In this document: positions 35,069 through 42,576 of the stretch, piece after piece | How the letters are laid out: each line of letters opens with the position of its first letter | How positions within the stretch are numbered: the stretch's first letter is position 1 | NCBI GenBank assembly: GCA_963666115.2 | Contig: CAXXET010000009.1 | Span: 1-49,602 of the forward strand | From: Dehalococcoidia bacterium | GTDB taxonomy: Bacteria; Chloroflexota; Dehalococcoidia; UBA6926 | DNA length: 49,602 nt | Reading direction: 5' to 3' | Notes under the pieces: model-generated | Database searches by the model: none | Seen by the model: the letters and a program-made list of their open reading frames with translations, nothing else | Told to the model about the DNA's origin: nothing | Position numbers and translations under genes: made by a program

Positions 35069-36013
35069 GTGATGGTAGCTAATTCGCACATCTACCACGT
35101 CCCTGCCCTATTGGACGAAGTCATCGAAACGCTTCAGCCGTATGCCGGTGGGAAGTACATCGACTGCACGCTCGGCGAGGGGTCCGTCACGGAGGCGCTC
35201 CTCTCTGCGGGCGGGCGCGTGCTTGGCATCGATGCTGACCCGGAGATGCTATCGTCGGCGGCGCGCCGTCTGGACGACCTGCCGAACGCGCGCTACACGC
35301 TTGTGCAGGCGAACTTCGCGTTCCTTAAAGAGGTGGCCATCGCACATGGCTTCACGCAGGCGCAGGGAATCATCATGGACGTTGGCCTGTCTTCTCGGCA
35401 GTTGCAGGCCATACGTCGCGGCTTCACGTTCCAGGACGATCAGCCACTGGACATGCGGTATGACCCTCGGCAAGACGTCACCGCCGCAGACCTGGTGAAC
35501 GACCTCCCGGAGCAGGAGCTTATCGACCTCCTCAGGACGTACGGCGAGGAGGACGCGTGGTCGGCCCGGTCCATCGCGAGGACAATTATCGGGCGACGGC
35601 CACTCAGCACGACGCGCGAGCTCGTTGAGTGCATCGAGTTCGCGGTTGGACAGCGCAGCGCGGCGCGGATACACCCGGCCACCAAGGCGTTCATGGCGCT
35701 TCGGATGACCGTGAACGCAGACCTCCAGGCCCTGGAGTCGGCCCTCCCGCAGGCACTGGAGTTGTTGGCGCCCGGCGGCAAGCTGGCCGTCATCGGGTAC
35801 CAAAGCCTGGAGGACCGCGTCGTCAAGCGGTTCCTCCACCAGGAGGCAAAGGATTGCCTTTGCCCCCCTGCCCAACCGGTCTGCACGTGCGAGCACGAGG
35901 CGACGGTTAGGCTGTTGCGGCGGCAGGGCATCACGCCCTCCATCGCGGAGATCGCGCGCAATCCCGCAAGCCGGTCGGCCCGGCTGCGGGTGGCGGAGCG
36001 CACAGCGGCATAG
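35069..36013 (+). CDS. rsmH: 16S rRNA m4C1402 methyltransferase
   Basis: HVP.LL.EV, DCTLGEG, DVGLSSRQL, PLDMR, YGEE, HPATK.F.ALR..VN, SLEDR.VK, NPASRSARLR. Confidence 0.96.
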   Translation: MMVANSHIYHVPALLDEVIETLQPYAGGKYIDCTLGEGSVTEALLSAGGRVLGIDADPEMLSSAARRLDDLPNARYTLVQANFAFLKEVAIAHGFTQAQGIIMDVGLSSRQLQAIRRGFTFQDDQPLDMRYDPRQDVTAADLVNDLPEQELIDLLRTYGEEDAWSARSIARTIIGRRPLSTTRELVECIEFAVGQRSAARIHPATKAFMALRMTVNADLQALESALPQALELLAPGGKLAVIGYQSLEDRVVKRFLHQEAKDCLCPPAQPVCTCEHEATVRLLRRQGITPSIAEIARNPASRSARLRVAERTAA

Positions 36014-36105
36014 GGCCGCAGAGAGCAGCGCAGCACGGGAAGCACAGGGACGAGAGACAGGCAGCGCAGCGCGGAAAAGCAGTGAGAAACGCGGAGAGTC
36101 GAAAG

Positions 36106-37152
36106 ATGGATCGGATAATCGCAGGCGTCGAACTCGCCGATAGGAAACTACGGATCGCCGTCGGACGCCACCGCCCGGGGTCCACGCGGATGCTCGCGTA
36201 CAGCGAGGCGGCCTCGGCGGGCATTGAGAATGACACGGTGGTCAACGCGCAGGAGTTGGGCATGGCCCTGTCCGGCATATCCCGGCAACTGCGGACAACG
36301 GTGGATTTCCCGCTTGAGAACGTGGTCTTCATCGTTCCCGCCGGCCACCTCCAATATCACCCCTCCATGTCCGTCTCATGCGACGCTTCCACCGCCGCGA
36401 ACATCCGTGACGCGGCGCGGCATCTTGGCAGCGAGAACGTCGCCCTGATGGCGGCGCCGCTGGCGGAAAGCCACGGCTCGCTGACGGACACGGAGCGGGA
36501 ACGCGGCGCGGCGGTTCTCTCAATCGGCGAGCACATGAGCACGATCACCGTCATGCGCTACGGCAAGTACCTTGGCACGGCGAAGATCGGCATCGGCGCC
36601 CACCACTTCACGAACGATCTCGTGATCGCCTTGGATCTCCCCTACCCTATTGCCCAGGCCGTGATGGATCAGGTTGCAACCGTCTCCGACACCATGGGGC
36701 CGGCACGCGCCGCCGTCACGGTGGACGGTAAGGACGTGGACATCGACCGGGTGCGGATGGCGGCAACCCTGCGCGACCGGGCCGATGAGTTCCTCGCTCT
36801 CACTGAGACCGCCATCGGGAGGATCGCCGGAAACCGTGAGCTTCCGGGCGGTGTGGCCATCGCCGGGCGGCCGGTGCTGCGCGAAGGACTCCTCCAGCTT
36901 GGACGTTCGGCGCTCTCCCTCCCCGTCTACCGGGCGACACCGCGCGGCATCGAGGGCATTCCGCAGGCTATATCGACCAACACAGCATGGGTTCCGGCTG
37001 TTGGAATCCTTGCCTGGGCGGGCGCGATCGCGGACCCGCTCACGCATCCCCTGTTCCATGCCGAGCCGCACAAGCGGTCCGGCAGCATTCTTTCAACGTG
37101 GCGTCGCCTGGCTCGCAGGCGTGAACAACGCCGGGAAATTGCGCGGGTTTAG
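36106..37152 (+). CDS. ftsA: degenerate FtsA-like protein
   Basis: Located between rsmH and ftsZ; PLAES..SLT..ERE.G..V..IG, IGAHHFTNDL..AL, GG..I.G, AVG; C-terminal amphipathic helix; short, with degenerate ATP motifs. Confidence 0.75.
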   Translation: MDRIIAGVELADRKLRIAVGRHRPGSTRMLAYSEAASAGIENDTVVNAQELGMALSGISRQLRTTVDFPLENVVFIVPAGHLQYHPSMSVSCDASTAANIRDAARHLGSENVALMAAPLAESHGSLTDTERERGAAVLSIGEHMSTITVMRYGKYLGTAKIGIGAHHFTNDLVIALDLPYPIAQAVMDQVATVSDTMGPARAAVTVDGKDVDIDRVRMAATLRDRADEFLALTETAIGRIAGNRELPGGVAIAGRPVLREGLLQLGRSALSLPVYRATPRGIEGIPQAISTNTAWVPAVGILAWAGAIADPLTHPLFHAEPHKRSGSILSTWRRLARRREQRREIARV

Positions 37153-37182
37153 GGAAAACGAAAGCAGGAGAGGAGTACGGAT

Positions 37183-38250
37183 ATGGCACTGCCTGAAGAT
37201 GTAGACGGGTTGGTTCGCATCAAGGCGTTCGGCGTCGGGGGCGGCGGCGGCAACGCGGTGTCCCGGATGGCGCGCGAAGCCGTCCCGGGCATCGAGTACA
37301 TCGCCGTGAACACGGACGCGCAGGCGCTTGCGCGGACGGACGCCCCCTATCGCCTTCGCATTGGCGACCAGATCACGCGCGGGCTGGGCGCGGGCGGCAA
37401 CCCTGAGATTGGCCGGCAAGCCGCGGAGGAGAGCCGCGACGACATCTATGAGACCGTCAAGAACTCCGACATGGTCTTCGTGGCCAGCGGCATGGGCGGC
37501 GGCACCGGCACGGGAGCGGCCCCGGTGATCGCCAACGTCGCCAGGGAAACCGGCGCGCTGACCATCGGCATCGTCACCCGGCCCTTCGCATTTGAGGGAA
37601 CGCACCGGGCGCGGCAGGCCGAGGAAGGCATTGCCAACCTGCACGGCGCCGTTGACAGCCTGATCATCGTTCCGAACGAGCGGCTTCTTGCCGTGGCCGG
37701 CACGGAAGCCTCATGGCACGATGCGTTCCGCATGGCGGACGATGTTCTCGGACAGGGCGTCCACGCCATCTCCGAGCTTGTCACCGTCCCCGGCGAGATC
37801 AACCTCGACTTCGCGGACGTGCGAACCGTCATGTCCATGTCCGGCCAGGCCCTCATGGCCATCGGCACGGGGCGCGGCAGCACGCGGGCGACAGACGCGG
37901 CGAAGGCGGCGATCCAGAACCCGCTGCTTGAGATCGACATCACGGGCGCAACCGGCGTCATGTACAACATCACCGCCGGCTCCGACCTCTCGCTTGCGGA
38001 GATTCACGCGGCCTCGGACATCATTTCCCAGGCAGTTGACCCCAACGCCAACATCATCTTCGGTGTCGTGTCCAACCGCGCCAGCGACGGCGAGGTGCAG
38101 CTGACCCTCATCGCCACCGGCTTTGAGACCACGCAGGACACCTTCGAGGATGACGAAGTGGTCGATCAGATTCTGCGCGACGCGCTGGGCGACGGAGACC
38201 TTGATCTCCCGCCGTTCCTGCGCCGCAAGACGAGGAGGATTGCCCGCTAA
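37183..38250 (+). CDS. ftsZ: cell division protein FtsZ
   Basis: GVGGGGGNAV, NTDAQAL, GMGGGTGTG, INLDFADV, C-terminal DLPPFLRR. Confidence 0.99.
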   Translation: MALPEDVDGLVRIKAFGVGGGGGNAVSRMAREAVPGIEYIAVNTDAQALARTDAPYRLRIGDQITRGLGAGGNPEIGRQAAEESRDDIYETVKNSDMVFVASGMGGGTGTGAAPVIANVARETGALTIGIVTRPFAFEGTHRARQAEEGIANLHGAVDSLIIVPNERLLAVAGTEASWHDAFRMADDVLGQGVHAISELVTVPGEINLDFADVRTVMSMSGQALMAIGTGRGSTRATDAAKAAIQNPLLEIDITGATGVMYNITAGSDLSLAEIHAASDIISQAVDPNANIIFGVVSNRASDGEVQLTLIATGFETTQDTFEDDEVVDQILRDALGDGDLDLPPFLRRKTRRIAR

Positions 38251-38287
38251 AGCCCCTTTCGGGCTACCAAATAGAACTTTCAGCACC

Positions 38288-38371
38288 CAGTCTTCCCCTA
38301 CCCCCAGGGAAGCGCAGGCCACCCGATCTATCGGTGTTTCGGCCTGCGTTTTCCTTTTTGCGAGCCTAAGC
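38288..38371. repeat. 84-bp direct repeat, copy 1 (contains the ftsZ terminator)
   Basis: Base-for-base identical to 39820-39903. Confidence 0.95.
38308..38359 (+). terminator. rho-independent terminator of ftsZ
   Basis: GGAAGCGCAGGCC...GGCCTGCGTTTTCC stem followed by TTTTT. Confidence 0.8.
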
Positions 38372-38422
38372 GCCACTCGGTGGCTTGGCTCGGATAACCA
38401 AGTTTCCGGCAAGGGCCAGGAG

Positions 38423-39799
38423 TCATCTCAGTGACTGAACAAGCGCATCGCCGATAGCGGTCGATGGCTTTACTTCATAACAGAGCTCACGCAGTTGCTC
38501 TTGGCGGGCATCCTTCTCTTCCGAATCAGTGACGGCATCACCATAGAGAAGATCATAGGCTGATTCCGGATGAAGCACCGGAGCGTTTCGCGCAATTACC
38601 TGCAGGTACTGTCGATGCACTCGCATTATCCCTTCATCCACTCCAACGACCGGGTATAGCGGAACGTGAACGTCATCTGGCACTGCAATTGAGTAACCGT
38701 GAACGGCGTCCTGCCTGTCGCTGAAACACCGCGCAAAGTTGAGCGAGTAAATGAGTTTCTGGATCATCGATGGCGAGAGGCCGAGGTCGCTCGACCGTGA
38801 GTGTTCACGCAGCAAGTCCCGGGCAAAATCGAGAGACATGCCAATGTCGGCCCGTTCTTCAAATTCGTCCCAAATCAGGCGGATCAGGGCATCCCGCGTC
38901 CTCCAGGGAATGAGCGGGATGCGGTTTTCTTGGAGGATTCTCCGATAGCTTGCCGTAATCGTCGCCTGTGATGAGTAGTCGTACTCCGGGGAAAGTAGAC
39001 CGACGTGTGGCACCGCAGGTGCCCCATGAGAGGGAATTGCCGCCATGACCATATCTGAGCCCGGGTTTTCCGAGACGCTGACATAACCCTGCTCCTGGGC
39101 ATCTTGTGCTAGCTGTTTGAACGTAGTCTTGTACCTCTCCAGGTCAAAGGAGGGAGAGAGCTGTTTCATCATCGAATGAACTGCTGCGCCTGTTGTTGGC
39201 CGCCCGCCGCGATCCAACGCCTCTACGGCCCGACGCATAAGCGAGTGGGCCTCAGCTGGGTCGGGTAGGGCAACCACTTCGGAAGATTCTTCCGGGGCCG
39301 GAGGAACAATGTCGTCGTAGTAGACGTACGAGTCGCAGGCCTCCACGAGAACACGACTGACTCCGGCCTCTACCCCAATGCCGACTACCACAACGCCATA
39401 GCGCCTTAGCTTCTGGACCAACGGCACGTAATCTCGGTCTCCGCCGACTATCACTACTGTGTCGGGTCGTACCGGGGAGAACACCATCTCAAGGGCGTCA
39501 ACCGCGAGTTGAATGTCTGCCGTATTCTTGTGCTCTCGGCTGGCGGCGGATGTCAGCAATTCAACCAGTTCGATCGCGCTGGACCTAAAGTCCCCAAGAA
39601 CAGGCCTCAAGAGGTCGGATGTCCAGTCCCCATAAGCCTTCGCCGACATCAAAGCGCCCTGTTGCCGCGCTCGCTCGATAATCAGTGACAGATGAAACGG
39701 CAGGCCCGAGTTCTGCGCGAGAATGAGGACGTTGTCAACGTCAATAAAGAGCGCAACGCGTCGGTTTCCAATACCACTAGCATCGTTGGCGTCCACCAT
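38423..39799 (-). CDS. NYN (LabA/DUF88) RNase with an OST-HTH/LOTUS-like domain and an extra C-terminal domain
   Basis: ALFIDVDN, AYGDW, KNTADIQLAVDA, GGDRDYVPLVQKLR, ACDSYVYYDD; LOTUS-like MKQLSPSFD..RY..FKQL. Confidence 0.88.
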   Translation of the reverse strand: MVDANDASGIGNRRVALFIDVDNVLILAQNSGLPFHLSLIIERARQQGALMSAKAYGDWTSDLLRPVLGDFRSSAIELVELLTSAASREHKNTADIQLAVDALEMVFSPVRPDTVVIVGGDRDYVPLVQKLRRYGVVVVGIGVEAGVSRVLVEACDSYVYYDDIVPPAPEESSEVVALPDPAEAHSLMRRAVEALDRGGRPTTGAAVHSMMKQLSPSFDLERYKTTFKQLAQDAQEQGYVSVSENPGSDMVMAAIPSHGAPAVPHVGLLSPEYDYSSQATITASYRRILQENRIPLIPWRTRDALIRLIWDEFEERADIGMSLDFARDLLREHSRSSDLGLSPSMIQKLIYSLNFARCFSDRQDAVHGYSIAVPDDVHVPLYPVVGVDEGIMRVHRQYLQVIARNAPVLHPESAYDLLYGDAVTDSEEKDARQEQLRELCYEVKPSTAIGDALVQSLR

Positions 39800-39819
39800 G
39801 GCAGCACTCCCCCCGATCT

Positions 39820-39903
39820 CAGTCTTCCCCTACCCCCAGGGAAGCGCAGGCCACCCGATCTATCGGTGTTTCGGCCTGCGTTTTCCTTTTTGCGAGCCTA
39901 AGC
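39820..39903. repeat. 84-bp direct repeat, copy 2
   Basis: Identical to 38288-38371. Confidence 0.95.
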
Positions 39904-39952
39904 CGATGCGCGAGACGTGGTCGATGTGCGAGCCGCGGCGGTTGCGCGGGCT

Positions 39953-40897
39953 TTAGCCCGCTATCGCCCGGGTCAGTTCCGGCGGAAGCTGGAAGGTGAC
40001 GTTCTCTTCGAGCGCCTTCAGGGTCCGCACGTCCCCCACCCCTGCGGCCATGAAATGCGCGATGACCTCTTCCACGAGGGAGTCCGGCGTGGACGCCCCT
40101 GAGGTGATGCCGACGGAAACGGCGCCCTCCAGCCAGGATTCATCCAGGTCCACCAGGCTGTTGATCAGATACGCCCTGCACTGCCCCGTCTCCGCCACTT
40201 CCTTCAGTCGCTGCGAGTTGCTGCTGTTCTCCGCGCCGAGCACGAGGACGACGTCCGTTTCCTCGGCAAGCAGCTTCACCGCGTCCTGCCGGTTCTGCGT
40301 GGCAAAGCAGATGTCGGAGCGCGCAGGCATCCGAATCCTGGGAAAGCGCGCCTTGAGGGCATCCACAATGTCTTTCGTCTCATCCACGCTCAGGGTCGTT
40401 TGCGTCACAAGCGCGACGCGCTCTTCGTCCGGAACACTGACCATGGCCGCGTCATCCATATCCTGGACCAAGATGATATCGTCCGGGGCCTCTCCCATCG
40501 TGCCGACGATCTCATCATGCCCCGCGTGGCCGACGAGGAGCACCTTGTAGCCGTCCCGCACGTACCGGACGGCCTCCACGTGAACCTTTGTCACCAGCGG
40601 GCACGTCGCGTCGATCACGTCGAGTTCTCGTCCCTGCGCCAGTTCCCGCACGATGGGCGCGATGCCGTGGGCGCTGAAAATGACGCGCGCGCCTGCCGGA
40701 ACGTCGGACACCTCTTCGACGAATACCGCGCCCTTTCGCTCCAAATCCTGCACGACGAACAGGTTGTGCACGATCTGCCTGCGGACATAGATCGGCGGGC
40801 CGTATTCCGCCAGCGCCAACTCGACCGCCTCGATGGCCCGGATCACACCGGCGCAGAATCCGCGCGGCTCCGCAAGAATAACTCGTTCGATTGTCAC
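39953..40897 (-). CDS. ispH: 4-hydroxy-3-methylbut-2-enyl diphosphate reductase
   Basis: PRGFCAGV, IVHN, SAHG, DATCPLV, QTT, DICFATQNRQ, SSNS, GASTP. Confidence 0.98.
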   Translation of the reverse strand: MTIERVILAEPRGFCAGVIRAIEAVELALAEYGPPIYVRRQIVHNLFVVQDLERKGAVFVEEVSDVPAGARVIFSAHGIAPIVRELAQGRELDVIDATCPLVTKVHVEAVRYVRDGYKVLLVGHAGHDEIVGTMGEAPDDIILVQDMDDAAMVSVPDEERVALVTQTTLSVDETKDIVDALKARFPRIRMPARSDICFATQNRQDAVKLLAEETDVVLVLGAENSSNSQRLKEVAETGQCRAYLINSLVDLDESWLEGAVSVGITSGASTPDSLVEEVIAHFMAAGVGDVRTLKALEENVTFQLPPELTRAIAG

Positions 40898-41030
40898 AGC
40901 GCCCTCACGTCACGTTGCTGAAGTCGTTTCCTTCTGCCTTAAGCATACACAAAGCTTTCACCCCTGCCCTCCCGCGCAGCGCCGCTCATGGACGCGGGCA
41001 ATGTTGTTATAGTGGTGACGGAGGTGGCCT

Positions 41031-41966
41031 GTGAACGACATTCGTCTCCACCGCGAGATTCCCCGAAACGTCCGCACCGTCATCATGGCGTTCTTTGGAT
41101 GGTCCGACGCCGGCGATGCCGCGACGGGCGCCGTCGATTTCCTTGCGCGCGCCCGGAACGCCGAGCTTGTCGCCGAGTTTGACCCGGACGAGTTCTTCAA
41201 CTTCACGGACTACCGCCCGATCGTCAACGTGGACGACTCCGGCGTGCGGTCTCTTACGTGGCCGCAGAACCGCTTCTTTCTCGCGCCCGGCACGGACGCG
41301 ACCGAGCCGCTTCTACTCTTCTCCGGTATCGAGCCGCACCTCCGGTGGAACCGCTTCAGCAACCAGTTCATCGATTTCCTCCTCGAATGCGGCGTGGAGC
41401 ACCTGGTCTCGTTCGGCGCGCTGCTCAACGCCGTGCCGCACACGCGCAAGCCGTACGTCAACGGCAGCAGCAGGACGCCGGAGATCAAGGCGACAATGGA
41501 GCGCCTCGGAATCTCGCGCGGCGGCTCCTATAACGGCCCGACGGGCATCTCGTCCGTCATTGCGGAGGCGTGCCAGCGGCGCGGCATCAGTTCGTCCAGC
41601 TTCTGGGGCCACGTGCCGCACTACATCCAGACGTCGCCGAACCCCACCATCATCCATGCGATTTTAGACACCCTGCGGCAGTCCATGGGCATCGGCGCGG
41701 ACCTCCGCGAGTTGGAGGGCGAGTCCGCAGCGTTCTATGAGCAGTGCGAAGAGGCCATCGAGGAAGAGCCGTCCATGCGGCAGTACGTCCGCAAGCTGGA
41801 GCAGTACTACGACGAGACGGAGGCGGAGCGACAAACAGGCCAACCGCGCGGCGGCACAAGCATCATCACGCCCGGCTCGCCGGAGTTCCCGGACGCGCAG
41901 GACCTCGTAGACGACCTGGAGGACTTTCTGCGGCGGCGTCCGCCGTTCAATGGGTCATCCTCGTAA
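41031..41966 (+). CDS. PAC2 (proteasome assembly chaperone) family protein
   Basis: AFFGWSDAGDAA, DPDEFF.F..YRP, GIEP..RW..F, VPHTR, YNGPTGI, WGHVPHY, YVRKLE. Confidence 0.9.
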   Translation: MNDIRLHREIPRNVRTVIMAFFGWSDAGDAATGAVDFLARARNAELVAEFDPDEFFNFTDYRPIVNVDDSGVRSLTWPQNRFFLAPGTDATEPLLLFSGIEPHLRWNRFSNQFIDFLLECGVEHLVSFGALLNAVPHTRKPYVNGSSRTPEIKATMERLGISRGGSYNGPTGISSVIAEACQRRGISSSSFWGHVPHYIQTSPNPTIIHAILDTLRQSMGIGADLRELEGESAAFYEQCEEAIEEEPSMRQYVRKLEQYYDETEAERQTGQPRGGTSIITPGSPEFPDAQDLVDDLEDFLRRRPPFNGSSS

Positions 41967-42031
41967 GCGATAACGCCCGATATATCGAACCGTCCTACCC
42001 TCTTCACCGCCCCGCGTTAGAATGGGATGGA

Positions 42032-42105
42032 CGGGGCGTAGCGCAGCCCGGCAGCGCGCCTGCTTTGGGAGCAGGAAGTCCCCGGTTCAAATCCGGGCGC
42101 CCCGA
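42032..42105 (+). tRNA. tRNA-Pro(TGG)
   Basis: CGGGGCG/CGCCCCG acceptor stem, CCTGC-TTTGGGA-GCAGG anticodon arm (TGG at 42066-42068), GTTCAAAT T-loop; CCA not encoded. Confidence 0.97.
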
Positions 42106-42147
42106 CTTTCTCCCATGCTCAGCCATGAGCTTCGCCCGCAATCCGGC

Positions 42148-42576
42148 TCAGGCAGCCGTCACCTCCAGGGTGACCGTGCAGCCAACCGCCGCTAACGCCC
42201 GCTGAACTTGGCTCATATGGGAACGGTGGTCGGGGTTTGTGATCCTGCGGACCGCGGCCTCGCTAACGCCCAGTCGCCGCCCCAGCTCCACTTTTGAGAC
42301 ACGCTGCCGCTTCATCGCCACATACAGCGCAATCTTGGCCGCTACGACAGGTATCACTGAAACGCGCTGCTGCCCCGGCTTGAGTTTCCCCGGATTCGGA
42401 ATCTCCTTCCCGTCGATCACGTATCCGGCCAGCGCAACTGAAAGGGCATCCGCTGCCAGTTCAAGAGTCTCGGGCTTGTTGTCCGCTCCGGTGATGGCCT
42501 CCGGCACGTCAGGGAACGTGGCAACATACTCGCCGCCCTCGTAGAGAGTCAGCTTACACGGATAGGCGTACAACAT
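42148..42576 (-). CDS. hicB: HicB-family antitoxin (no adjacent hicA)
   Basis: Y..TFPDVPEAITG, A.DAL..AL..Y...G..IP.P, AAKIALY, C-terminal HTH. Confidence 0.88.
   Translation of the reverse strand: MLYAYPCKLTLYEGGEYVATFPDVPEAITGADNKPETLELAADALSVALAGYVIDGKEIPNPGKLKPGQQRVSVIPVVAAKIALYVAMKRQRVSKVELGRRLGVSEAAVRRITNPDHRSHMSQVQRALAAVGCTVTLEVTAA

Follow-up and report, generated by a model that had tools for sequence, protein, structure and literature searches.

A lower-GC single-gene insert flanked by an 84-nt duplication of a conserved hairpin element between ftsZ and ispH in a Dehalococcoidia bacterium

The ftsZ–ispH interval and its duplicated hairpin element

The window, as the whole stretch of DNA analysed (49,602 nt) is called here, contains the convergent genes ftsZ and ispH, between which one further gene (the cargo gene) is bracketed by two copies of an 84-nt sequence (Table 1). 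The copies are identical at 84 of 84 positions with a start-to-start spacing of 1532 nt, and the boundaries of the duplication are sharp, since the letters immediately outside the two copies differ on both the left and the right. Within the genome (2,067,757 bases in nine contigs) the 84-mer is present in these two copies only, which sets it apart from a dispersed repeat, and, of the 202 exact local direct repeats of 30 nt or more in the genome, 29 are 'isolated', the 84-mer being the longest of these. Another repeat-flanked arrangement was seen in the same genome at C8:229885–231958, where two complete tRNA-Glu genes, identical over 75 nt, bracket a low-GC insert of two genes that has no integrase.

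Table 1. Features of the ftsZ–ispH interval; positions refer to the window.
Feature	Position	Strand	Description
ftsZ, 355 aa	37183..38250	+	Pfam Tubulin, E 2.2e-46; FtsZ_C, E 4.6e-28
Conserved element, ~75 nt	38285..38359	+	C-rich 5' part, long hairpin, T-run
Left 84-nt copy	38288..38371	+	Native, 3' of ftsZ in all congeners; aligns to a single copy in 21/21
Hairpin stem-loop in left copy	38306..38355	+	Folding; conserved pairing
Foreign insert, 1,448 nt	38372..39819	-	20-nt leader (Shine-Dalgarno-like G-run), one ORF, 51-nt trailer
Cargo gene, 458 aa	38423..39799	-	NYN + winged-helix + ROQ-like; ORF, Pfam, structure matches
ROQ-like domain, residues 272-445	38465..38986	-	Structural superposition on Roquin ROQ
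Winged-helix domain, residues 179-258	39026..39265	-	Winged-helix matches, Z 7.2-8.4
NYN (PIN-like) nuclease domain, residues 14-161	39317..39760	-	Pfam PF01936, E 1.5e-30
Right 84-nt copy	39820..39903	+	Hairpin 39838-39887; between ispH and cargo gene
ispH/lytB, 314 aa	39953..40897	-	Pfam LYTB, E 8.5e-93; co-directional with, and upstream of, cargo gene

The insert contains no ORF of at least 100 aa other than the cargo gene, the start codon of which lies 20 nt from the right copy. A scan of 38000–40200 on both strands returned no sigma-70-like promoter, and no terminal inverted repeats were found when inverted-repeat pairs were screened over 36000–42000, the insert ends not being complementary to each other. 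The insert's GC content is 0.568 versus a genome mean of 0.634 in windows of the same size, placing it in the lowest 4.7% of 10,278 windows, and the GC3 of the cargo gene is 0.61 versus 0.78–0.87 in five neighbouring genes; on account of this low GC3 the composition of the cargo gene is foreign. The preliminary description of the locus had proposed a perfect 84-bp duplication containing a long hairpin followed by a T-run, and between its copies a single gene, starting about 20 nt from the right repeat, that looked more AT-rich than its neighbours. All of these points hold, including the AT-richness, which had not been computed at the time, and the gene is intact. The final 8 nt of the insert are found again in the loop of the hairpin (chance about 0.0045, post hoc), and local alignment of the insert ends with the hairpin gave p of about 0.025 for the right end and no significance for the left end; this similarity is left as unexplained and is not counted as evidence.

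The hairpin lies almost at the centre of the duplication, with margins of 18 nt on the left and 16 nt on the right, and the left edge of the duplication lies no more than 3 nt from the start of an element of about 75 nt that serves as the ftsZ terminator. Compared with 21 congeners, this element has a mean identity of 94.7% and is invariant at 57 of its 75 columns, whereas the corresponding identities are 89.2% for the last 150 nt of ftsZ, 73.9% for the spacer and 28% for the 12-nt tail; judged by sequence identity, the element is thus better conserved than the end of ftsZ. The earlier label 'ftsZ terminator region' is therefore apt in that the repeat holds the terminator hairpin, but it understates a genus-conserved element that is not an ordinary terminator. 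The minimum free energy of the hairpin is -35.3 kcal/mol (z = -3.86), none of 200 shuffled sequences folding equally well; the long bulged stem was overlooked by a simple terminator scan. At the 15 pairs of the outer helix, pairing holds in 100% of cells in the 22 genomes compared; one compensatory change was counted, a number equalled in 38 of 500 shuffles. Because the element varies too little for covariation, support for the hairpin comes from folding energy and conservation. An Rfam search at E≤10 over 37900–40300 gave no match on the element, and an RT-15 match inside ftsZ was rejected as chance (17 bits versus a gathering score of 82). JGI metagenome contigs gave no match to an exact 32-mer taken from the element's invariant part. 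A T in the hairpin bulge and the 12-nt tail are common to both copies and are seen in none of the 21 congeners, and both copies therefore stem from the single copy of this lineage.

Domains of the cargo protein

The NYN domain of the cargo protein scores 107.1 bits against PF01936 (curated cut-off 24.2), and 35 homologues all share its acidic residues D20, D95, D101, D121 and D123. Its structural matches lie at Z 17–21, including 2qip (Z 20.8) and the NYN domain of MARF1 (Z 18.5), and as in NYN–LOTUS proteins of the MARF1/LabA type the NYN fold is followed by a winged helix. The winged helix weakly resembles a divergent LOTUS-like fold: the OST-HTH profile (PF12872) gave no match in the cargo protein even at E≤10 and matched one of 35 family members (E 3.1e-6). 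The C-terminal domain superposes on the whole ROQ domain of Roquin (Z of about 16), with 13 Roquin ROQ entries matching at Z 15.1–15.9 and an rmsd of 2.4–3.1 Å over 139–148 aligned residues of about 150. The motifs A-x-C-F and LLYGD are common to the cargo family and Roquin-1. At the sequence level, however, the similarity to Roquin is marginal: when the family profile was compared with PDB sequences, Roquin-1 was found at E 0.017–0.18 and made up seven of the eight hits at E≤10, and no ROQ Pfam match was obtained in the cargo protein. Among 101 significant hits from 1.84 billion proteins no Roquin-type protein was recognised, as judged by length alone. The designation 'NYN/LOTUS RNase' proposed earlier thus stands for its NYN part and weakly for its LOTUS part, and had missed the third, ROQ-like domain.

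In the animal system, the ROQ domain of Roquin acts on stem-loops alongside the PIN-type nuclease Regnase-1, as described in PMC4614863 and PMC5031192. Unlike Roquin and MARF1, the cargo protein joins a nuclease and a ROQ-like domain in one bacterial polypeptide that is without RING, zinc-finger or HEPN domains, and its function is a predicted one. The protein is most likely an endoribonuclease that recognises stem-loops, and possibly has a role in defence. The family comprises about 100 clusters at 50% identity from several phyla and appears to be the first reported case of a ROQ-like domain in a bacterial protein, no earlier report having been found in the literature.

Empty sites in relatives and recombination genes of the host

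In all 21 congeners ftsZ and ispH are directly convergent, with a single hairpin copy and no gene between them, and when the two repeats are collapsed into one the sequence becomes collinear with the ftsZ–ispH junction of each of them, so that the plain convergent junction predicted earlier is indeed restored. The junction measures 510–532 nt in 17 of the 21, compared with 569 nt for the collapsed window, and the remaining four exceed 569 nt by 6 to 180 nt and are entirely non-coding. A 617-nt contig from run X1 likewise carries an empty site, being 97% identical over the end of ftsZ and joining position 38360 to 39946 with 35 other letters between them. With perfect repeats, and with empty sites in the 21 congeners and in this closer, 97%-identical relative, the integration is recent and lineage-specific, in line with the 'very recent' event envisaged in the preliminary description. 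The 'variable slot' that it also envisaged was not recovered, the interval being free of alternative cargo in the 21 congeners and the X1 contig. Its 'circular one-gene cassette', which would have needed to bear the lineage's own 84-mer beforehand, gained no support either.

No close homologue of the cargo gene was found in the 21 congeners, four of which have partial matches of 26–32% identity; of 400 other genomes taken as a sample of the class, one has a full-length homologue (49% identical), and the best database relative (P0002) is 77% identical. Matching plasmid records (126) and phage records (five) included none that covered at least 80% of the protein, and only two-domain NYN proteins matched. 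Around the homologous genes of other genomes, 18 loci in all, no flanking duplication exceeded shuffled controls except for a 24-nt palindrome in L054, and the route of insertion is therefore not a property of the gene family. Pieces from run X3 are 100% identical to the cargo gene (38937–39087) and to ispH (40240–40390), and a piece from run X4 is identical to the cargo gene (39619–39760); the gene is thus not confined to a single assembly, and in X3 it is accompanied by the ispH of this organism. In the four runs, each representing 5–6% of sampled words, no contig bridges either junction.

Whole-genome searches with the Phage_integrase, Resolvase and Recombinase profiles placed no recombinase on the contig of the window (C9), confirming the earlier remark that none is nearby. 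Two Phage_integrase matches (C4 and C6) and one Recombinase-domain match (C4) were obtained, and the Resolvase profile had no match anywhere in the genome; the recombinases of the genome are XerD, a XerC-like protein and a 419-aa serine-recombinase relic that is without the catalytic N-terminus. A dif-like site was sought by eye in the hairpin and no convincing one was seen, on which ground Xer-mediated integration was rejected. The genome contains neither reverse transcriptase nor Ku, and retro-insertion and end-joining were rejected accordingly. A transposon or insertion sequence was rejected in view of the missing transposase, the missing terminal inverted repeats and the duplication length of 84 nt. 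An integron cassette would share with this locus a promoterless single ORF, a short leader, hairpin-forming repeats and expression from upstream. The core site of integrons has the motif GTTRRRY, which neither strand of the 84-mer contains; integron-integrase models match Xer proteins only and with scores well short of their cut-offs, the best (127 bits versus a cut-off of 265) falling on XerD. With no IntI, no attC core sites and no array, and with repeats that are native host sequence, this candidate was also rejected. ComEC, DprA and RecA are present in the genome, but since they are near-universal (controls match in 10–14 of 14 genomes), they show opportunity rather than competence. Large serine recombinases number two to nine per congener, none of them at the ftsZ–ispH site; in one congener (G002) such a gene adjoins tRNA-Glu in a 28-kb island without a long flanking repeat.

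Routes to the duplication

From these comparisons, 1,448 nt of foreign DNA of lower GC content entered the convergent ftsZ/ispH intergenic region in this lineage, and 84 nt of the lineage's own sequence, nearly centred on the conserved terminator hairpin, now flank it on both sides. With about even confidence, we regard the locus as an insertion with long target duplication (ILTD), a rearrangement that is reportedly on record for restriction–modification genes (Nobusato et al. 2000, Gene 259:99). As described by Furuta et al. 2010 (PMC2853133), an ILTD combines an insert of less than 20 kb with a duplication of more than 30 bp, lacks mobile-element genes and has a relative whose site is empty, and those described there have repeats of 45–423 bp and come mostly from competent species. 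At the present locus an insert of 1,448 nt lies between repeats of 84 nt that are not multi-copy, mobility genes are absent, and relatives have a single-copy empty site. As in the published cases, the insert is small, the repeats are unique in the genome, the GC content deviates from that of the host and the cargo encodes a nuclease. In contrast to those cases, which carry R and M genes, this locus holds just one cargo gene, for a predicted NYN-family RNase; its duplication centres on a terminator hairpin that is conserved, and competence is not known in the host. The single NYN-domain gene thus departs from the restriction–modification cargo of Furuta et al., a criterion that defined their screen and not the rearrangement.

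For the formation of the ILTD the following route is put forward tentatively, at rather less than even confidence. The two strands would each suffer one single-strand break, to the left of the hairpin on one strand and to its right on the other, leaving an 84-nt staggered gap; foreign DNA in linear form, for which uptake via ComEC/DprA is plausible, would be joined to both ends without homology; and fill-in synthesis would produce the second copy of the 84 nt, with ftsZ and ispH each retaining a hairpin copy of its own. We can only infer this step, because we know of no enzyme that makes an 84-nt stagger and the mechanism of ILTD is itself unsolved. Once in place, the cargo gene would be transcribed by read-through from ispH, the hairpin having no U-run in that direction. 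RecA-mediated recombination between the copies could delete the unit as a 1,532-nt circle or amplify it, and could re-insert the excised unit into the empty site of a conspecific cell. Repeat-mediated loss or amplification of the unit, as suggested in the preliminary description, is plausible, given that RecA is present and that amplification of genes between long direct repeats is cited by Furuta et al. (PMC2853133).

The reading as an ILTD has to be weighed against a Campbell-type insertion, in which a 1,532-nt circle carrying the gene and one 84-mer was integrated by a single crossover, catalysed by RecA or by a site-specific recombinase acting in trans. This route is unlikely, but it is a serious contender: one such crossover yields a final structure identical to the one observed, an insert between direct repeats of host sequence with no need for a transposase, and RecA is present. 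The large serine recombinases of the congeners indicate that such enzymes circulate in the genus, and the integrase-less insert between the tRNA-Glu pair on C8 provides a second locus of a comparable kind. The position of the left duplication edge, at most 3 nt away from where the conserved element starts, also favours this route, as the element could have travelled as a module rather than having been cut around. However, the circle must already have carried the lineage's own 84-mer including the non-conserved 12-nt tail, and a Campbell-type event therefore explains spread within the species rather than origin. In addition, this genome has no active dedicated integrase, and the only serine-recombinase island inspected (in G002, at tRNA-Glu) is without a long flanking repeat. 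Homology-facilitated illegitimate recombination in transformable bacteria likewise places an insert between host repeats without the need for a transposase. Both processes require incoming DNA identical to that of the host, which is unexplained here, the nearest relative of the cargo being 77% identical.

A remnant of a larger element is improbable. In this explanation, an island with its own recombinase was integrated at the hairpin and later lost all but the cargo gene and two att sites, which fits the definition of a cis-mobilizable element (CIME), in which the integration and transfer genes are lost and attL and attR are kept (PMC5704250). Phage integration at hairpin-forming small-RNA genes offers a precedent (PMC3603311), and the island of G002, in which the serine recombinase gene adjoins tRNA-Glu, is a further point in favour. 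CIMEs and the small decayed islands described in these two sources at tRNA or small-RNA genes resemble the present locus in their direct repeats, missing integrase, hairpin-forming conserved non-coding target and low-GC cargo. The locus differs in that no gene remnants are found, the intact gene leaving only 20 nt and 51 nt to spare, no island occupies the ftsZ–ispH site in any congener, and no cognate recombinase was found. Moreover, both repeats are perfect up to their ends, and the 84-nt identity includes non-functional spacer.

A more speculative variant, to which we give very little credence, is that the cargo protein makes its own entry site. It is proposed that the ROQ-like and winged-helix domains would bind the stem-loop as a DNA hairpin, a cruciform or the nascent RNA of an R-loop, that the NYN domain would nick both flanks of the hairpin at a set distance from it, and that the gene would be copied into the resulting 84-nt gap. 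If true, this would be a homing-like, self-promoted route and ILTD would gain its missing enzyme.

It is at least as doubtful that the arrangement is an assembly artefact, produced when an empty chromosomal site and a separate molecule bearing the 84-mer were threaded into one path. Graph resolutions are, by reasoning, equivalent at word sizes below 84, and the four runs yielded no junction-bridging contig. Against this, a 1.5-kb circle without a replication gene would be an implausible replicon, identical cargo pieces occur in X3 (with the ispH piece) and in X4, and the ORF forms a coherent arrangement with its ribosome-binding site and its orientation downstream of ispH. Finally, loss from relatives of an ancestral gene with both copies is scarcely credible: loop-out between 84-nt repeats would be easy and would leave exactly the observed empty site, but the site is empty in every one of the 21 congeners and in the X1 relative, the copies are still identical although the element tail averages 28% across the genus, the GC3 of the gene is foreign, and full-length homologues are rare in the class (one of 400 other genomes).

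In conclusion, this study describes a locus that, as an ILTD, adds a clean new example to this known class of bacterial gene gain. The case is unusually clean in its perfect repeats, its empty sites in 21 relatives and a 97%-identical one, its single-gene cargo, a genome without an active integrase and a duplication nearly centred on a strong, genus-invariant hairpin. The combination of a hairpin-centred geometry with a cargo in which a nuclease is joined to a domain resembling a stem-loop reader in shape makes it testable whether the hairpin directs the breaks and whether the nuclease takes part. The invariant element after ftsZ may matter independently, as a candidate 3'-UTR or regulatory RNA of an uncultured lineage. 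The occurrence of a ROQ-like domain in bacteria is relevant to how the Roquin/Regnase stem-loop decay system arose, and the stem-loop reader of animal Roquin would, if the self-entry proposal is true, have a nuclease-fused bacterial counterpart.

The duplication and its site in related genomes

The 84 nt after ftsZ recur beside ispH with full identity, the two copies lying 1,532 nt apart and the adjoining bases outside them differing on either side; the perfect duplication reported in the preliminary description is thereby confirmed. The 84-mer is present exactly twice in the genome (2,067,757 bases in nine contigs), the two flanking copies being all that a search for further ones returned, and it is the longest of the 29 repeats with unrelated flanks among the 202 exact local direct repeats of at least 30 nt found in a genome-wide scan. 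The insert between the copies comprises 1,448 nt with one long ORF, here called the cargo gene, and contains no terminal inverted repeats. The ORF ends 51 nt from the left copy, and its start codon, preceded by a G-rich run resembling a Shine–Dalgarno sequence, lies 20 nt from the right copy, as had been estimated. The gene had also appeared AT-rich, which agrees with an insert GC content of 0.568, a value among the lowest 4.7% of 10,278 equally sized windows of the genome, and with a cargo GC3 of 0.61 versus 0.78–0.87 in rsmH, the ftsA-like gene, ftsZ, ispH and the PAC2 gene. Beside the right copy, the insert ends in 8 nt that reappear in the hairpin loop region (39810-39819 and 38321-38330; chance about 0.0045, post hoc).

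Coordinates of the features discussed (positions in the window unless a contig, C1–C9, of its own genome, G000, is named; L111 and L120 are stretches of that genome)
Feature	Position	Strand	Description
Left copy of the 84-nt repeat	38288-38371		Identical to right copy
Right copy of the 84-nt repeat	39820-39903		Identical to left copy
Conserved element, ~75 nt	38285-38359, copy from 39820		C-rich 5' part and long hairpin; near-invariant in 22 genus genomes
Cargo ORF	38423..39799	minus	458 aa
ROQ-like domain	38465-38986	minus	Residues 272-445; superposes on Roquin ROQ
tRNA-Pro(TGG)	42032-42106		In the window
tRNA-Glu locus	G000:C8:229885-231963 (L111 1886-3964)		tRNA-Glu(CTC) in two complete copies, identical over 75 nt
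'Recombinase'-domain protein	G000:C4:119882-121141 (L120 1057-2316)		419 aa
REP-like repeats, examples	C3:54725, C3:57491, C8:208084, C6:109187, C1:16267 (G000)		

In all 21 other genomes of the genus the sequence matches from the ftsZ end through the end of the hairpin and then runs on into ispH. The interval rebuilt with a single 84-mer is collinear with every one of them, as a single alignment in 16 and as two pieces, broken at the variable spacer, in five, so that collapsing the repeats does restore a plain convergent ftsZ–ispH junction. The junction measures 510–532 nt in 17 of these congeners versus 569 nt in the collapsed window; the remaining four (575–749 nt) hold additional non-coding sequence too short for a gene. 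No close cargo homologue was found in the 21 congeners, four of which encode partial NYN paralogues (26–32% identical) elsewhere in the genome. Among four sequencing runs, each sharing few words with the region, run X1 yielded a contig of 617 nt that shows 97% identity over the ftsZ end and joins 38360 to 39946 via 35 other letters; the relative it represents is closer than all 21 congeners, and its site is empty. The idea of a variable slot with alternative cargo is not supported, as neither the congeners (0/21) nor the X1 contig carries any, and no evidence emerged for the suggested circular cassette.

Elsewhere in the window, rsmH is followed directly by the ftsA-like gene and ftsZ (35069-38250), with no mur or fts cell-wall genes between them; the dcw cluster usually holds such genes between rsmH and ftsA/ftsZ. 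After the tRNA-Pro gene, a 142-aa ORF (42148-42576, minus strand) looks by eye like a HicB-type antitoxin with a C-terminal helix-turn-helix.

A conserved hairpin element after ftsZ

Within the repeat a long hairpin with bulges (stem 38306-38355) precedes a T-run, with a minimum free energy of −35.3 kcal/mol (z = −3.86) that none of 200 shuffles equalled. Over its first 72–75 nt the repeat forms a conserved island, with a mean identity of 94.7% to the 21 congeners and 57 of 75 columns invariant. In the same comparison ftsZ scores 89.2% and ispH 79.4% over their final 150 nt, the spacer preceding the element 73.9% and the 12-nt tail beyond the T-run 28%; the element is thus more conserved than the coding end of ftsZ. 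The 15 pairs of the outer helix form in all genomes, with one compensatory change, and 38 of 500 shuffles equalled the element in a covariation test, for which the variation is too low. No Rfam family corresponds to it, and among 150 other genomes sampled from the class only the seven congeners possess it, two further matches of 19–21 nt (E 0.004–0.005) looking like chance. Because the element is genus-limited, conserved and paired throughout, it is more than a generic terminator, and we guess that it may be a regulatory RNA derived from the 3' UTR, with its loop rich in C.

The hairpin-bulge base and the 12-nt tail are common to both copies and occur in none of the 21 congeners, and the tail of the X1 relative is related to theirs; both copies therefore derive from the lineage's own sequence. 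The end of the right copy and the bases after it (39897-39920) resemble, by eye, the surroundings of the ispH stop codon in four congeners (G019, G015, G004 and G011), the present stop lying 50 nt beyond; an earlier rearrangement of the ispH 3' end may have left this resemblance. Dispersed REP-like palindromic intergenic repeats of ~33–41 nt (a hairpin with a GAA-type loop and flanking C-runs) occur in many copies in this genome and its congeners.

The cargo protein and its family

Three domains make up the AlphaFold model of the cargo protein (mean pLDDT 81.5). A structure search matched residues 5-166 to NYN nucleases (2qip, Z 20.8; MARF1, Z 17–18.5), in line with a Pfam NYN match (E 1.5e-30) and with acidic residues that are invariant across 35 sequences. 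Residues 179-258 form a winged helix (structural matches Z 7–8), for which the earlier LOTUS label was too firm: the OST-HTH/LOTUS profile matches one of 35 family members, and this protein is not that one. The third domain superposes on the Roquin ROQ domain (13 PDB entries) with Z 15.1–15.9 and an r.m.s.d. of 2.4–3.1 Å over 139–148 residues of a ~150-residue domain, the next unrelated row having Z 8.8. When the family profile was compared with all PDB sequences, one NYN protein was followed only by Roquin-1, which accounts for seven of eight matches at E ≤ 10, marginally (E 0.017–0.18), and the motifs A-x-C-F and LLYGD are common to the family and Roquin-1 in the alignment. A profile of this domain found 101 cluster representatives (E ≤ 1e-3) among 1.84 billion, nearly all with the domain C-terminal in proteins of the cargo family's size; judged by length, no Roquin-type protein was recognised among them. 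The winged helix of the ROQ domain binds stem-loop RNA, according to PMC4614863, and Roquin and the PIN-type nuclease Regnase are described in PMC5031192 as targeting similar stem-loops. Our literature search turned up neither a ROQ-like domain in bacteria nor an NYN–ROQ fusion.

The family (proteins of ~430–530 aa) gave 836 matches in a word-index search (E ≤ 1e-3; best 77% identity) and falls into ~100 clusters at 50% identity, from genomes whose labels span several phyla. Homologues of 48–63% identity are mostly in metagenome-assembled genomes labelled Dehalococcoidia, and distant full-length ones in genomes labelled Armatimonadota, Planctomycetales, Lentisphaeria and Caldithrix; only one of 400 other genomes sampled from the class carries a full-length homologue. 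The GC content of the gene is below both flanks in 17 of 19 homologous loci, and the neighbours vary by lineage (between mrp and ftsK, between otsA and otsB, or beside GmrSD, Dcm-Vsr, a Dam-type methylase, HicB or a transposase). Full-length homologues are absent from plasmid and phage collections, and the family thus behaves as a solitary, horizontally moving gene. Flanking duplications were absent from 18 of these homologous loci, save one 24-nt palindrome in locus L054, so that the duplication is special to the ftsZ–ispH site.

Origin and consequences of the insertion

The rearrangement fits insertion with long target duplication (ILTD) as published, being a small insert without mobility genes, bounded by a direct duplication of >30 bp whose sequence occurs once where a relative's site is empty; the cargo here is an NYN nuclease, whereas the published cases carry a restriction-modification pair. 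According to PMC2853133, which cites Nobusato et al. (2000), ILTD has been found with every type of restriction-modification gene, the repeats measuring 45–423 bp and the hosts being mostly naturally competent species, and its mechanism is unknown, double-strand breakage having been proposed. ComEC, DprA and RecA are encoded in the genome, as in most bacteria; neither reverse transcriptase nor Ku is.

Whole-genome profile searches placed no recombinase on the window's contig, which upholds the earlier remark that none is nearby. The genome encodes two Phage_integrase proteins, one above the XerD equivalog cut-off and the other XerC-like, and shows no Resolvase-domain match. The single 'Recombinase'-domain protein likewise has no match to that domain and, as read from its sequence, lacks the catalytic N-terminal serine motif; it is probably a dead relic; five congeners searched have 2–9 intact-looking large serine recombinases each. 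The integron core site is absent from the 84-mer.

We tentatively favour an origin in which staggered breakage flanking the hairpin would have led to the capture of foreign linear DNA, fill-in synthesis then duplicating the 84 nt, because both copies carry the lineage-private bases, the insert ends are unlike the flanks, the hairpin sits almost at the centre of the duplication (which reaches 18 nt beyond the stem on the left and 16 nt on the right) and there is no integrase nearby. One crossover with an 84-mer-bearing circle would yield an identical product and would be a natural route for the spread of the unit among conspecific cells, but it cannot account for the first event and is a possible, rather doubtful origin. 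A decayed larger island is improbable, since the intact gene fits snugly and the sites of relatives are empty. An assembly artefact is quite improbable. In its favour, no contig among the four sparsely matching runs bridges either insert junction; against it, those runs contain pieces identical to the cargo gene (X3, 100%, and X4) and to ispH (X3, 100%). Ancestral presence with repeated loss is very unlikely.

A locus similar in look lies at tRNA-Glu, where the two genes flank a low-GC insert (1.9 kb, GC 0.57) that lacks an integrase and has ORFs of 370 and 225 aa, neither with a family in Pfam or NCBIfam. Across the genus this locus is hypervariable; in the congener G002 the same two ORFs (78% identical) lie within a ~28-kb island that has no long flanking repeat and in which a large serine recombinase gene adjoins a single tRNA-Glu.

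In the boldest reading, to which we give little credence, the nuclease, steered by its stem-loop-reading domains, would cut around the hairpin and so make its own insertion site; the near-symmetric margins fit this but carry little weight, and the 18 homologous loci without duplications speak against it.

After the insertion, ftsZ and ispH would each retain their own hairpin copy. RecA could loop out or amplify the unit via the repeats. Since no promoter-like site was found for the cargo gene, which lies downstream of ispH and co-directional with it, and since the hairpin lacks a U-run when transcribed from the ispH side, the gene is likely to be expressed by read-through from ispH.
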